Sequence record: NC_047998.1
DNA length: 50,403 nucleotides
Origin: Shigella phage Sfin-1
Reading direction: 5' to 3' (one strand)
The notes beneath the pieces were generated by a model that did no database searches, was not told where the DNA came from, and saw nothing but the letters and a program-made list of their open reading frames with translations. The position numbers were made by a program, and so were the translations under genes. Positions 13,610-42,598 of this stretch are shown here, piece after piece (within the stretch, counting starts at the first letter, position 1; every line of letters begins with the position of its first letter).

Positions 13610-13786
13610 CTATTCGCAAGTGATCTCATTTGATGTGATTGGTAGCAAAACATTGCCAACCATCACGAAAGTAGTAACCTGGTTCCCGGTTTCATGGCAT
13701 CGCTCTTTGACCTCGCCACAGCCGGACACTACCAGGATAGCCAGGGCGACCGCCGCCATCATGCAAATCAGAATGCGCATCATTCG
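13610..13786 (-). CDS. Putative small lipoprotein (58 aa)
   Basis: MMRILICMMAAVALAILVVSGC: signal peptide with a lipobox-like VSGC; ATGA-coupled to the upstream small membrane ORF. Confidence 0.35.
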   Translation of the reverse strand, partial: RMMRILICMMAAVALAILVVSGCGEVKERCHETGNQVTTFVMVGNVLLPITSNEITCE

Positions 13787-22124: not shown

Positions 22125-22236
22125 GCAAGGGTTGTTGAGTCTGTTACTCACTTCAATGAGGGCCAGTAACGAAAGCGAGCATAATCTTTGCGATAAGGAG
22201 GGGGAGTTACTCCTTCACGTAAAAAGGTACAAATAG
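22036..22236 (+). CDS. Possible hypothetical protein (66 aa) overlapping the 3' end of the previous gene
   Basis: GGAGAG RBS; stop adjoins the next promoter dyad; the overlap makes one of the two calls uncertain. Confidence 0.25.
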   Translation: MKICLANVETLIDRNVELCARLQLTKEEFEQGLLSLLLTSMRASNESEHNLCDKEGELLLHVKRYK

Positions 22237-22277
22237 CACTTTTTGTTAAAACACCCGATCTCGTATCGGGTATATTT
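22235..22277 (+). promoter_or_regulatory. Early promoter cassette (TAGCACTTTTTGTTAAAAC plus 22 bp plus TATATT)
   Basis: CCCGATCTCGTATCGGG hairpin. Confidence 0.5.
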
Positions 22278-22313
22278 GTTTCATCGAAATGAAACGACCT
22301 GAAGGAAAACATC

Positions 22314-22529
22314 ATGGCTGACAAATTTTTAGTAGTTCGCGTTTACAACCACTCTAACGGCACTAGCAGTGAGATTCCTACCCTTTACAGCAAGGCTGAT
22401 GGATGGACTGAAGAAACGGCGGTAGCGAACGAGAAGAAGGTCGCTGAGATGTACGGCGACACCTGCGAGATTGAGGTTCGCGAATACGCAAAACTCACGA
22501 ACGAAAGTTATATGTGGGAAGACGCATAA
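22314..22529 (+). CDS. Hypothetical protein (71 aa)
   Basis: GAAGGA RBS; followed by a strong terminator. Confidence 0.45.
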   Translation: MADKFLVVRVYNHSNGTSSEIPTLYSKADGWTEETAVANEKKVAEMYGDTCEIEVREYAKLTNESYMWEDA

Positions 22530-22532
22530 AAG

Positions 22533-22558
22533 AAAAGGAGGCTAAGCCTCCTTTTTTC
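22533..22558. terminator. Bidirectional intrinsic terminator between convergent genes
   Basis: AAGGAGGCT-AA-GCCTCCTT hairpin flanked by A- and T-runs. Confidence 0.7.
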
Positions 22559-22946
22559 CGTTCTTACGAAGTGAAAAATAAATCATCAACAGGCCAATAA
22601 AAACGAGAGTCCACCCTACAATTGCATCGTACCAGTTCCCCGGTTTTGTTACCGTGATGCTTTCAGCGTTAACCGTGTTAGCCTGAATGGTTGACACTTC
22701 CACAGACTTCTTGACGGATGAGTCAATCTTGCCAATATTTGAATCACTCACCTTCACTTCTCGCTTATCGTCGGCCTTTGCAGTAACTCCCGCCAGTTGC
22801 TTAGTGTTCTCAGCGCCAACCTGCGCAGTAACATCCGGGGAGTCAGAAAGTAAACCGCTCAGAGCAGATGCCGTCGAGCAACCGGATAGAGAAATAACAC
22901 CAACAGCCACTGCAATCGCAATGCACGTTTTCTTCAGTTTCATCAT
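22542..22946 (-). CDS. Unimolecular spanin (T1 gp11-type)
   Basis: N-terminal lipoprotein signal with lipobox LSGC plus C-terminal transmembrane helix; last gene of the lysis cassette. Confidence 0.6.
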
Positions 22947-23431
22947 AATTCCTTAACGCAATACGCGTATTCTTCAGCGCGTCGGTTCTTGAGTCCTCTA
23001 GACACTTCGCGCTTTTTGGTTTTTGGATTGTAGTAGTATACCCATCGCCATAACTGATTGCACGCCTCCTTGTGCTTACTCTGATTGATTAGCTTAAGCA
23101 TTGTAGAAGATCCGAATGCGCCAGTACCAACGTTGAAAGTAAAGCTGTAGAGTGAGGCGCGCATCGTTACCGGAATTTCAACCTTAACCTTCTTGTCAAC
23201 GTATCGCTGAGCGACGCCGATATGTTTTATCAGCAATGCATCGCATTCTCGCTTAGTGTATTTCTTGCCAGGTATGACGTCCGGCCCGGTTATTCCGCTG
23301 CATACTGTAGGTACTCCGGCGATATCGTAATACACCTCGTACTCTATCCCTTCGATTCGTTCCAGTAGGGTAGGCGTCAACGTCAAAGCGGCCCCGATCG
23401 ATGCGCCTATAACGTTATTTTTTAAACTCAT
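22943..23431 (-). CDS. SAR endolysin (lysozyme, T4-lysozyme-like catalytic triad)
   Basis: E-x8-D-x5-T in [16 protein letters not shown]; Gly/Ala-rich weakly hydrophobic N-terminus typical of a signal-arrest-release domain. Confidence 0.7.
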
Positions 23432-23646
23432 TATCTCCCCCTAATCTTAAGCGCCTTATTTAGATCGCCATCGTTTAACGCTTCCTGAATTGCCTTACTG
23501 TCACGATACTTCCAGTATGCGCCCCATGCACCAAAAAGCAGAAAGCAAATGAATGTAGCGCCAGCAATATAAAGTTGCCCTGTCGCCGCACCTACCAATG
23601 AAGCGCCGCCCGTGCTTGACGTAGCTGCTGTTAAAAATTCTTTCAT
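23431..23646 (-). CDS. Holin (pinholin-like, two transmembrane segments)
   Basis: 71 aa from the internal ATG with GGTGA RBS; two hydrophobic segments and a charged C-terminus; TAATG coupling to the endolysin. Confidence 0.55.
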
Positions 23647-23764
23647 AATATCACCATATATTTTTTGAACAAGTGAGTTGATTTTAACCTTCAAATTTAC
23701 TTGATACAACGCAAAAGGGCCAGCATGTAAACCATGCCAGCCCGTAAGGTTATGAATGATATTG

Positions 23765-23941
23765 TTAATCTAGCTCAATAAATTCCAGGTAATGACCGTT
23801 CAGAGGAGATTGGATTGTTGAACCTCTGCCATCGTAAATCTCAAACAATCCACCACCGAAATCATAACCAACACTATAGATCTGATTTACGCGGAATGGA
23901 AGCGTTTTGGAATCATTTCGGATGCACTTAACTCGTTTCAT
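23765..23941 (-). CDS. Hypothetical small protein (58 aa)
   Basis: AGAGGG RBS. Confidence 0.3.
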   Translation of the reverse strand: MKRVKCIRNDSKTLPFRVNQIYSVGYDFGGGLFEIYDGRGSTIQSPLNGHYLEFIELD

Positions 23942-24004
23942 GAAATACCCTCTTTGTTTTATATGTGGTCAATATACCCGAATCCCTTCGGGAGTTTTTG
24001 GCGA

Positions 24005-25156
24005 TTAGTGCGATCCTGTCATTTCTGGACGATAGATGAATCGCCCGATTTCACCAAACTGTTTATCGTAAACGATTACCGCCGCCTGGCGATATGAGCG
24101 CCACCCTCCTCGCGCTGCGTATGCATCTTTCGCGCCTAACTGCCCGTGAACCTCATCAATACCTAACGAGTGTTCAGTAATTGTCTGATGATGCCAGTGT
24201 CCGCTATGCGTGTACACGTATTTGCTTTCACCAAAATCTGCGCGGAAATCTGCTGCCATCGCTGCAAGTCGCGTGTCTGCCTTTTTCATCGTGTGACCGT
24301 GAGTGTATCCCAACAAGGTATTTCCCCAGCGGGTCTTATGCAGAATCATAGGACTAACGTCAACGAATACTCGCGGCTCGTCCTCATAGTATGCAGCCAT
24401 TGCAGCGCGTAGCCAAATCATTCCGGCCTGGTCGTGGTTCCCTTCGATAACCTGAACTTCGACCTCTTTGTGTTTAGTCAGCATTTTGTCGATAGCTCGT
24501 CGCACCGATCGAATAGCCACATGCACCAATTTCGCATATCGTGAATCCTGATCCAGAACGTGACCACTTGCCGGGGTAACAGCATCAAGACCGTCTGAGT
24601 GAAGGAAGTCGCCGCCGATTAACAGAACAGCCTTCTCTGCGTTCGGGGCAATATCGATCGCGTAGTTAAAGAAGTCATTCAGCACTTTTTCCGCTACGTC
24701 TGTAGAGTAGTTCTCTCCGCATTCATGCTTGTGAGCAAGTGCGCCAATGTGAAGATCGAACACCGGGTAGAGTGCCAGCTTGCCAATAGCGGTTGTAAGC
24801 CCTTGCGAGGTGAGTAGCTCAGTTGGTTTTGCTCGCGGCAAGTCTTCACAGAATGCAATACGCGCAGCTTCCATCATTGCCGCAATCTTCTCACGGTCCT
24901 GATCGGTCTTAACCCATCGCACTACCTCGGTCCCATCGCCGCGAATCATAGTTGATGTGCCTTTTACCATGAATCCTTCCGGTACGTTCTTAGCAACATG
25001 CTCGTTACCGTGGAAGTGACCTTCTTTTGCAAGTTTGGCGTGACGCGCTTCAACTGTGCGGATGTGCATACCGTACTTTTCAGCGATCTCGCGAAGTGTA
25101 AGTCCGCTCATGCGCTCTTCGATAAGTTGCTCGGTAGTGATTTTAGCTTGTGACAT
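24005..25156 (-). CDS. Calcineurin-like metallophosphoesterase with N-terminal helix-turn-helix domain
   Basis: Phosphoesterase motifs D-x-H (FDLHIG), GDxxD (GGDFLHSDG), GNHD, GHTH, GHWH; N-terminal LTLREIAEKYGMHIRTVE resembles an HTH. Confidence 0.6.
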   Translation of the reverse strand: MSQAKITTEQLIEERMSGLTLREIAEKYGMHIRTVEARHAKLAKEGHFHGNEHVAKNVPEGFMVKGTSTMIRGDGTEVVRWVKTDQDREKIAAMMEAARIAFCEDLPRAKPTELLTSQGLTTAIGKLALYPVFDLHIGALAHKHECGENYSTDVAEKVLNDFFNYAIDIAPNAEKAVLLIGGDFLHSDGLDAVTPASGHVLDQDSRYAKLVHVAIRSVRRAIDKMLTKHKEVEVQVIEGNHDQAGMIWLRAAMAAYYEDEPRVFVDVSPMILHKTRWGNTLLGYTHGHTMKKADTRLAAMAADFRADFGESKYVYTHSGHWHHQTITEHSLGIDEVHGQLGAKDAYAARGGWRSYRQAAVIVYDKQFGEIGRFIYRPEMTGSH

Positions 25157-35682: not shown

Positions 35683-35913
35683 ATGAAAAAGTTAATCACC
35701 ATTATCGCTGCGGCATTCATCCTGACTGGTTGTGCTCAGAATCTTAAAAATGGCGACTGCGTTACTTACGCATACGGTTCTTGCATGATGCGATTCGTTG
35801 ATGGTCAAAAGGTTCCTGCTGGCGAAATTGATATGCGATTCAAAGGTCTGTCATCCGACGACGATCAGGGCAACTTTAGCGGCAAGGTGTCAATCAAAAC
35901 TAAAGAGTGGTAA
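35683..35913 (+). CDS. Small lipoprotein, candidate superinfection-exclusion protein (Llp/Cor-like)
   Basis: Signal peptide with lipobox LTGC; 76 aa; adjacent to the tail-tip and receptor-binding region. Confidence 0.5.
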   Translation: MKKLITIIAAAFILTGCAQNLKNGDCVTYAYGSCMMRFVDGQKVPAGEIDMRFKGLSSDDDQGNFSGKVSIKTKEW

Positions 35914-41757: not shown

Positions 41758-42536
41758 TGATTTTTCCTCTGTAGTGAAGCAACCGCGCAGCCGCCAAAAT
41801 CCAGTTCATTGTTTGCGCCGAATCGCAGGCGGCAGGCCGTTACCGTGCCTGGGCAGAAATCCAAAGCAGGATCGTCTACCGGATTATTGTCTTTGTCAAA
41901 ATAACCGTTTTGCCCGTTGTATCCGCAGCCTTTCCCGGTTTTATACCATCCCCGCTGCGCCCAATAGCAAACGCTTTGCGTTAGTCGAGACGGGATCATG
42001 ATGCCATCCATATCATACGGAGACGTGAGATCGAATCGGGCGACGCTCTTATCGACATAGCTCGGGCGTTCGATATAGTATACCAGTTTGCGGTAAGCGC
42101 CGTCAGCTATTGAGCCGTCAGGTTGAATTAAGTCCTTTTGAGTGATCCAGATTGTCACCTTAGCTTGCATCAATCCGTTATATGATCGAATCATTGCAGA
42201 TACTCTGCTATCAATGTTCGCCACCGTCAACTGTGGTTTTGTTGCCTTGCCGGAACTATCAAACGAGATCCCGGATATGCCGAACGGGCGCGCTCCATAT
42301 TGCTCCCCACGGAATGTAATTTCTTTCGGCGGCAGCGTTCCAGTTTGCTGGGCCTGCATGATTTCCTCTGGAGTGTACTGGATATTCTCTCCGTGGAATC
42401 GATACACCTGAGCGCCGAACTTGCTACCATCCACTTCGATCAGAGTGATAATCTCTCCAGGATACAGTGATTGCAGGCAGTTATGAAACAGGCTCTTTCC
42501 GCTTTCTTCATCATACAGTTTTTTGTTTTCGCTCAT
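41754..42536 (-). CDS. Minor tail protein (lambda gpL-like)
   Basis: C-terminal Cys cluster (CYWAQ...C.Y...C...C...C); start at the ATG with AGAGGA RBS. Confidence 0.75.
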   Translation of the reverse strand: MSENKKLYDEESGKSLFHNCLQSLYPGEIITLIEVDGSKFGAQVYRFHGENIQYTPEEIMQAQQTGTLPPKEITFRGEQYGARPFGISGISFDSSGKATKPQLTVANIDSRVSAMIRSYNGLMQAKVTIWITQKDLIQPDGSIADGAYRKLVYYIERPSYVDKSVARFDLTSPYDMDGIMIPSRLTQSVCYWAQRGWYKTGKGCGYNGQNGYFDKDNNPVDDPALDFCPGTVTACRLRFGANNELDFGGCAVASLQRKNQ

Positions 42537-42576
42537 TGATTTTTCCTCTTGTTTGCCTGCAACCATTCTACAGCTA

Positions 42577-42598
42577 CAAAAAACCCGCGCAAGGCGGG
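42577..42598 (-). terminator. Intrinsic terminator, duplicate of the hairpin at 40406..40420
   Basis: Identical CCCGCGCAAGGCGGG stem-loop followed by U6. Confidence 0.55.

Follow-up and report, generated by a model that had tools for sequence, protein, structure and literature searches.

Gene organisation and borders of the locus

The window, i.e. the whole stretch of 50,403 nucleotides that was analysed, carries at 22542-23646 three overlapping genes on its minus strand, which encode a holin, a lysozyme and a lipoprotein that has a membrane helix at its C-terminus. The cassette reads in the order holin, endolysin and spanin, the spanin gene being last, and is closed by a terminator. The genes and features of the locus are listed below, with hydropathy given as the mean Kyte-Doolittle value (KD) and SAR denoting signal-arrest-release.

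22533-22555, both strands: bidirectional intrinsic terminator-like hairpin, AAAAGGAGGCTTAGCCTCCTTTT (terminator scan and folding)
22542-22946, minus strand: predicted unimolecular spanin (u-spanin), orthologue of T1 gp11 (ATG..TAG, 134 aa)
22569-22625, minus strand: predicted C-terminal transmembrane helix of the spanin (KD 2.21, simple Hessa sum -1.43), with the basic tail RKNGKKEA after it
22878-22946, minus strand: predicted lipoprotein signal peptide of the spanin with the lipobox LSGC (lipobox scan, pattern and hydropathy only)
22943-23431, minus strand: endolysin, orthologue of T1 gp12, a T4-lysozyme-type muramidase of the R21 kind (ATG..TGA, 162 aa)
23306-23353, minus strand: catalytic triad E27-x8-D36-x5-T42 of the endolysin (regular expression, unique in the N-terminal 60 residues)
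23363-23419, minus strand: predicted SAR domain of the endolysin, the uncharged run N5-L23 between K4 and E24 (19 residues)
23431-23646, minus strand: holin, orthologue of T1 gp13 (ATG..TAA, 71 aa)
23512-23574, minus strand: segment 2 of the holin, L25-W45, a predicted strongly hydrophobic transmembrane helix (KD 1.53)
23581-23637, minus strand: segment 1 of the holin, F4-T22, weakly hydrophobic (KD 0.91, 79% G/A/S/T)
23717-23743, minus strand: strong hairpin with a U-run that borders the cassette on its upstream side, ahead of the holin gene (terminator scan)
23765-23941, minus strand: DUF7244 (SH3-clan) protein of 58 aa, in a position orthologous to T1 gp14 (Pfam PF23896, 4.7e-28)

The stop codon of the holin gene and the start codon of the endolysin gene overlap by 1 nt (TAATG), while the endolysin and spanin genes share 4 nt (ATGA); with the second ATG of the tandem ATGATG as the start of the spanin, only 1 nt is shared. 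The first ATG of this tandem (22946) yields a protein of 134 residues and the second (22943), which is the choice made in the T1 annotation, one of 133 residues. The initial annotation of this DNA had placed a lysis cassette of three genes, overlapping by 1-4 nt, at 22542-23646, and the positions of the open reading frames together with the TAATG and ATGA junctions show these coordinates to be exact. A 92-residue, TTG-initiated open reading frame for the holin (start at 23709) was rejected, as its start lies within the U-run of the upstream hairpin and as the ATG at 23646 agrees with both the T1 annotation and the PHROG profile, which covers residues 1-71 of 71.

The hairpin at the downstream border has folding energies of -14.2 kcal/mol on the minus strand and -16.1 kcal/mol on the plus strand, holds the stop codon TAG of the spanin gene in its loop and ends both the cassette and a convergent open reading frame of 71 residues; a terminator is annotated at the equivalent position in the T1 record (NC_005833). 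The hairpin at the upstream border has an 11-bp stem with 7 GC pairs (-20.8 kcal/mol, z = -3.5), and 46 of the 50 nucleotides of its interval are the same as in T1. A consensus scan of the minus strand found no consensus sigma-70 promoter for the cassette, and inspection by eye of the 70 nt that precede the holin gene gave weak promoter matches only (TTGTAT-17-TAAAAT). The DUF7244 gene falls beyond the stretch covered by the initial annotation. DUF7244 proteins are standalone SH3-like proteins that are widespread beside the lysis modules of Drexlerviridae, and they have been hypothesised to be auxiliary lysis factors (PMC13164509, 2026).

The region 22300-23900 is 100% identical to the corresponding regions of Shigella phages Sfin-4, Sfin-5 and Sfin-6, 99.9% identical to that of Sfin-2 and 91-97% identical to those of many other Escherichia and Shigella T1-like phages, and over positions 1-25000 the window shows 100% identity to Sfin-6 and 99.9% to Sfin-2. 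Judged by its nucleotide sequence, the window is the genome of a Tunavirus, i.e. of a T1-like virus.

In coliphage T1 (NC_005833), the genes for the holin (ST13), the endolysin (ST12) and the Rz-like spanin (ST11) show the same order, the same overlaps and the same flanking terminator, and T1 too carries a DUF7244 gene upstream of the cassette. The holin is identical to gp13 (71/71, 100%), and the endolysin shares 159 of its 162 residues with gp12 (98%) and the spanin 119 of 133 with gp11 (89%). Residues 12-101 of the spanin are the same as in gp11, and 13 of the 14 substitutions lie in residues 102-130, which comprise the C-terminal transmembrane domain (TMD) and the tail. Homology to T1 ends directly on the 3' side of the stop codon of the spanin gene and is lost on the upstream side beyond about 23960, where in T1 the exonuclease gene is separated from the DUF7244 gene by an HNH endonuclease gene (ST15). 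The three-part architecture is also present in Rogue1, KLPN1, tonijn and Stevie, as well as in the podophage KpV74 with a different gene order. Given the Pfam and PHROG scores reported below, the features of the cassette are, on the evidence of these profile matches, no chance pattern.

The spanin and the endolysin

The product of the third gene matches the PHROG family phrog_1804 'Rz-like spanin' (2.3e-45). The cysteine of its lipobox is Cys23 in the 134-residue numbering (codon 22878-22880) and is followed at +2 by Ser and not by Asp, so that the protein is predicted to lack an inner-membrane retention signal. The lipobox, the C-terminal hydrophobic run and the basic tail are kept in 8 of the 8 aligned relatives, and periplasmic cysteines are absent from the mature protein. 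Relatives of the spanin were identified by tblastn in 1166 phage records, many of them annotated as u-spanin. Membership of the T1 gp11 family calls for an identity of 40% or more to a member, over 40% or more of the length (Kongari et al. 2018); the identity of 89% to gp11 (119/133) extends over the full length, and the protein shares with the family a lipobox without Asp at +2, a C-terminal helix with a basic tail and the last position in the cassette. T1 gp11 is the prototype unimolecular spanin, experimentally established as such; it complements the RzRz1 defect of lambda, the LSGC lipobox is required for this complementation, and a beta-rich, not a coiled-coil, structure has been predicted for its periplasmic domain (PMC6139136). 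The initial annotation had read the third gene as a lipoprotein signal joined to a C-terminal transmembrane helix in the manner of T1 gp11, and LSGC with Cys23 and the helix with a KD of 2.21 agree with that reading. In view of the 89% identity and the shared gene order, the relation goes beyond mere resemblance, and the gene is an orthologue of the gp11 u-spanin gene.

A two-component spanin of the Rz/Rz1 type pairs an i-spanin, which has an N-terminal TMD, with an o-spanin, a small lipoprotein of the outer membrane whose gene may be embedded, overlapped or separate. A search for a second spanin was performed by scanning the whole window in six frames for lipobox signals in open reading frames of 35 aa or more. 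Besides the gp11 orthologue, the scan yielded two lipobox-bearing open reading frames, neither of which matched a spanin family, and both were rejected as spanins; an Rz/Rz1-type pair did not turn up in the rest of the window. The open reading frame at 35683-35913 is Cor-like (phrog_4281/phrog_1119), with a signal peptide that is the same as in T1 Cor and a mature part that has diverged, while the one at 13610-13783 (57 aa, early region) is a homologue of T1 ST72 (phrog_8628). An i-spanin-like partner was looked for among the neighbours of 13610-13783 only, and these are without a transmembrane segment. The six-frame lipobox scan also found no embedded or overlapping second reading frame in the spanin gene. 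The proposal of a single spanin in place of a two-component Rz/Rz1 pair withstood this window-wide scan for lipobox-bearing candidates.

Phage 21 has a two-component Rz/Rz1 spanin, whereas that of the present cassette is unimolecular. With lambda Rz/Rz1, the u-spanin shares the role of linking the inner to the outer membrane through the peptidoglycan. Unlike lambda Rz/Rz1, however, it carries both anchors on one polypeptide and shows no sequence similarity to the pair, and the periplasmic domain of the T1 gp11 type is predicted to be beta-rich rather than coiled-coil (PMC6139136) and is without periplasmic Cys.

The product of the second gene matches the Pfam family Phage_lysozyme (PF00959, 1.7e-33) and the PHROG endolysin profile (2.9e-50). 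Its closest solved relatives are E. coli RrrD (4ZPU) and the entries 3HDE and 3HDF (5.7e-34 and 4.3e-33, respectively; listed as 'Lysozyme'), which we take to be the phage 21 SAR endolysin R21 in its inactive and its active state. In an ungapped alignment, 61 of 129 residues (47%) are the same as in R21; the HMMER alignment begins inside the N-terminal uncharged run, and the triad lines up with the EG..YxD..GxxT motif of R21. The two homologues share the E-D-T triad and an N-terminal domain that is rich in G/A and free of Cys. In accordance with the first description of the gene, the E-x8-D-x5-T triad is present once, at E27, D36 and T42, and is preceded by a weakly hydrophobic, Gly/Ala-rich N-terminus, the run N5-L23 having 19 uncharged residues, a mean Kyte-Doolittle value of 1.13 and 47% G/A/S/T. 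This run is comparable to the SAR domains of R21 and P1 Lyz but shorter (19 vs 24 aa) and slightly less hydrophobic, those domains having KD values of 1.39-1.48 by the same measure on the N-terminal sequences compared. Cys is absent from the run and from the N-terminal 43 residues of the endolysin; therefore, if the run is a SAR domain, activation would follow the conformational route of R21 and not the disulfide isomerisation of P1 Lyz. A comparable uncharged N-terminus is found in the endolysins of Rogue1, KLPN1, tonijn, Stevie and the podophage KpV74, the Vc1 record being the exception. The endolysins of close relatives carry the annotation SAR endolysin, and the same type has been predicted for T1 gp12 (PMC11447400). 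The label 'SAR' for the present endolysin is likewise a prediction of topology.

For both of these genes, other readings have to be considered. The third gene could encode an ordinary phage lipoprotein, such as a superinfection-exclusion factor, with the outer membrane being disrupted by something else, and several GenBank records of near-identical phages do say only 'lipoprotein' or 'hypothetical protein'. Such a function is extremely improbable for a protein that is 89% identical to T1 gp11 with the same periplasmic domain, given that gp11 complements the RzRz1 defect of lambda in a lipobox-dependent manner (PMC6139136); moreover, both membrane anchors are present, the gene is the last of the cassette, and the six-frame lipobox scan gave no alternative spanin in the window. 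The endolysin, in turn, could be of a type other than SAR, either secreted by way of a cleavable Sec signal peptide or soluble in the cytoplasm and dependent on large holes made by the holin. The shortness of the run (19 aa, with a hydrophobic core, V7-L23, of 17 aa that includes Pro20) and a mean KD of 1.13, which is below the classical threshold of 1.6 for a membrane helix, speak for an endolysin of this kind, yet it is very unlikely in the light of the 47% identity to R21 (5.7e-34), in an alignment that reaches into the SAR region. R21 has been proven by experiment to be a SAR endolysin, and its N-terminal domain is reportedly kept and forms part of the active fold (Xu et al. 2004, Sun et al. 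2009). Further, the run abuts the catalytic Glu, which is 3 residues away, so that cleavage there would truncate the fold, and on reading the sequence no convincing A-x-A site for cleavage was seen downstream of a proper h-region. The SAR annotation of close relatives and the SAR prediction for T1 gp12 (PMC11447400) also argue against it.

Topology of the holin

The product of the first gene matches the PHROG family phrog_2877 'holin' over its full length (1-71 of 71; 1.9e-38). The Pfam search returned no family at threshold, the sole match being DUF3262 with an E-value of 0.024, which is below the cut-off. Homology to the S21 holin family was likewise examined, and the protein matches no Pfam holin family and falls into a PHROG of its own, phrog_2877. 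In the paradigm of the phage 21 pinholin, S21 68, two transmembrane helices are arranged N-in/C-in, the first of them weakly hydrophobic and releasable, and the channels are small (about 2 nm), depolarising the membrane but retaining folded endolysin. The S21 holin belongs to the same size class as the present one and likewise has a weak helix ahead of a strong one, but no sequence relation between the two holins is detectable. Unlike S21, the present holin is without a dual-start (antiholin) motif and essentially without an inter-helix loop.

The initial annotation had described a holin with two transmembrane segments like those of the pinholins. The weak-then-strong pattern of hydropathy agrees with this description in part, whereas two separated helices are not seen; the protein has a single uncharged run of 42 residues, F4-W45, in which the putative helices are joined by two residues only (G23-Q24). 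The holins of homologues carry polar or charged residues (Q, E or D-N) at the junction between segment 1 and segment 2, which is consistent with a tight turn. The simple Hessa sum of the protein reaches its minimum in segment 2, which is conserved among relatives and is followed by a K/R-rich, presumably cytoplasmic tail, the C-terminal third of the holin being highly charged. Segment 1 is a candidate for a releasable first transmembrane helix or for a periplasmic tail. A division of the run into a weak and a strong transmembrane segment is plausible, but is a prediction. The hydropathy pattern matches that of the S21 pinholin, in which TMD1 has a KD of 0.52 and TMD2 one of 1.50 when computed in this way. 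The GenBank record of T1 states that its holin 'contains single transmembrane domain', while two transmembrane segments have been predicted elsewhere and a class II pinholin proposed (PMC11447400). The present holin is likely to function like a pinholin. The literature searched yielded neither a direct experimental test of 'pinholin' or 'SAR' for the T1-type proteins nor an experimental report on the hole size of T1 gp13.

A single-pass holin, with the N-terminus outside, the C-terminus inside and F4-T22 as a periplasmic tail that never inserts, is somewhat unlikely; hole size and triggering could then differ from the phage 21 paradigm. The T1 GenBank statement of a single transmembrane domain favours such a topology, as do the KD of 0.91 and the unfavourable simple Hessa sum of +5.6 of segment 1, the want of a real loop between the segments and the first segment of Rogue1, which has only about 15 uncharged residues and is very Gly-rich. 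Nevertheless, the TMD1 of S21, which is less hydrophobic still (KD 0.52), is reported to insert and later to exit, so that weak hydrophobicity of the first TMD is to be expected in the pinholin class. Moreover, the Drexlerviridae relatives examined keep segment 1 uncharged and have a polar or charged residue where it joins segment 2; the holin gene is paired with that of a SAR-type endolysin, and published annotations predict two TMDs (PMC11447400). The single-pass and the two-helix descriptions may even be two states of one protein, since the TMD1 of a pinholin leaves the membrane on activation. A broader proposal, in which the T1 gp13-type holins form a distinct class of small single-pass (N-out) holins that arose independently as triggers of SAR endolysins, perhaps acting with the DUF7244 protein as a fourth lysis factor, is unlikely. 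The single-pass holin and the role of DUF7244 are both already in the literature, as the T1 GenBank note and as a published hypothesis (PMC13164509), respectively, and the gain would be modest if they were true.

Proposed course of lysis and relation to the T1 system

The cassette is very probably a T1-like (Tunavirus) lysis cassette that is gene-for-gene orthologous to T1 13-12-11 and brings about lysis by a holin, a SAR endolysin and a u-spanin. Members of the T1 gp11 family sit in cassettes that encode a pinholin and a SAR endolysin (PMC6139136), and for T1 and related phages the combination 'pinholin + SAR endolysin + u-spanin' is already on record (PMC6139136, PMC11447400, PMC13164509). 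The interpretation given in the initial annotation is thus supported, the labels 'pinholin' and 'SAR' continuing to be predictions, and the cassette itself is already known as the prototype system of a published phage lineage.

From these features we infer the following course of lysis. The endolysin would be exported by the Sec system and then tethered to the inner membrane in an inactive form through its weakly hydrophobic SAR domain, while the small holin would build up in the inner membrane until, at a programmed time, small lesions collapse the proton-motive force. On depolarisation, the SAR domain would exit the bilayer, and the enzyme would refold to an active muramidase and degrade the peptidoglycan. 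The u-spanin, lipid-anchored in the outer membrane at Cys23 and with its C-terminal helix in the inner membrane, would be restrained by the peptidoglycan mesh for as long as this is intact; once the wall is gone, it would join, fuse or disrupt both membranes, and the virions would be released. The topology and the hole size of the holin, the behaviour of the SAR domain and the step of membrane fusion are put forward here in the sense of this model. The u-spanin step draws on the published genetics of T1 gp11 and on work in which gp11, once the peptidoglycan was depleted, reportedly lysed cells in the absence of both holin and endolysin (Kongari et al. 2018, J Virol). The peptidoglycan is reported there to be a negative regulator of gp11, and internal starts are reported for gp11 as well.

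The value of the present analysis lies mainly in annotation, as the names u-spanin, SAR-type endolysin and holin can safely be given to the genes of the near-identical phages. In several GenBank records of these phages, the genes of the cassette are named only 'lipoprotein', 'lysin' or 'hypothetical protein'.

The two ends of the spanin gene

The differences between the spanin and its T1 orthologue gp11 are concentrated at one end of the protein, with 13 of the 14 amino-acid differences falling in the C-terminal transmembrane domain and tail (22542-22660), and the DNA identity to T1 drops to 36/50 at 22609-22658, within the gene. Homology to T1 stops exactly at the spanin stop codon, and no alignment of the 400 nt past it (22125-22541) to the corresponding T1 stretch was obtained. 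This region includes the following ORF:

22314-22529, + strand: 71-aa ORF within the non-T1-like 400 nt beyond the spanin gene; no Pfam match

Judged from these alignments, a mosaic junction seems to lie at the gene's 3' end.

The start of the gene (22943-22946) carries a tandem ATGATG. The first ATG gives a 4-nt ATGA overlap and lies only about 3 nt from an AAGGA Shine-Dalgarno motif, while the second, which is the start chosen in the T1 annotation, lies about 6 nt from it. Because of this spacing, the 133-aa form initiated at the second ATG may be the real spanin product.

The region upstream of the holin gene

Two features lie directly upstream of the holin gene:

23765-23941, - strand: DUF7244 (SH3-clan) protein, 58 aa; DUF7244 match at 4.7e-28
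23717-23743, - strand: strong U-run hairpin (-20.8 kcal/mol) between the DUF7244 and holin genes

The DUF7244 protein has recently been proposed as an accessory part of the Drexlerviridae lysis module (PMC13164509). Since the strong U-run hairpin separates its gene from that of the holin, the two may not be transcribed together in a simple way. The protein also has no signal sequence, and it is therefore hard to imagine it binding the wall in the periplasm ahead of lysis.

In T1 (interval compared, 41956-42582), the HNH endonuclease gene ST15 separates the exonuclease gene from the DUF7244 gene, whereas in the window (interval 23942-24100) a 383-aa ORF (24005-25156) is followed straight away by the latter, and the alignment with T1 is lost upstream of about 23960. 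The presence or absence of an HNH homing gene has been remarked on previously (PMC13164509), and the difference at 23942-24100 is consistent with it.

The cassette of Vibrio phage Vc1

The annotated endolysin of the related Vc1 record (L004, 1046-1435) is just 129 aa long, with neither the N-terminal hydrophobic run nor the E-D-T region, and the annotated 'holin' is encoded on the opposite strand and bears no relation to gp13. A frameshift, mis-annotation or a genuinely rearranged cassette are all possible explanations.

Predicted lipoproteins outside the cassette

13610-13783, - strand: small 57-aa predicted lipoprotein of the early-gene region; lipobox VSGC
35683-35913, + strand: Cor-like lipoprotein, with signal peptide and lipobox as in T1 Cor

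The Cor-like protein shares all of residues 1-17, which comprise the signal peptide and lipobox, with T1 Cor, but has diverged strongly in its mature part (24/53 identities overall), and its phrog_4281 match is far better than that to the Cor PHROG. The protein may represent a variant superinfection-exclusion specificity. The smaller lipoprotein is a homologue of T1 ST72 and a member of phrog_8628, with matches in only 53 records, all of them Escherichia, Shigella or Tunavirus-type phages.
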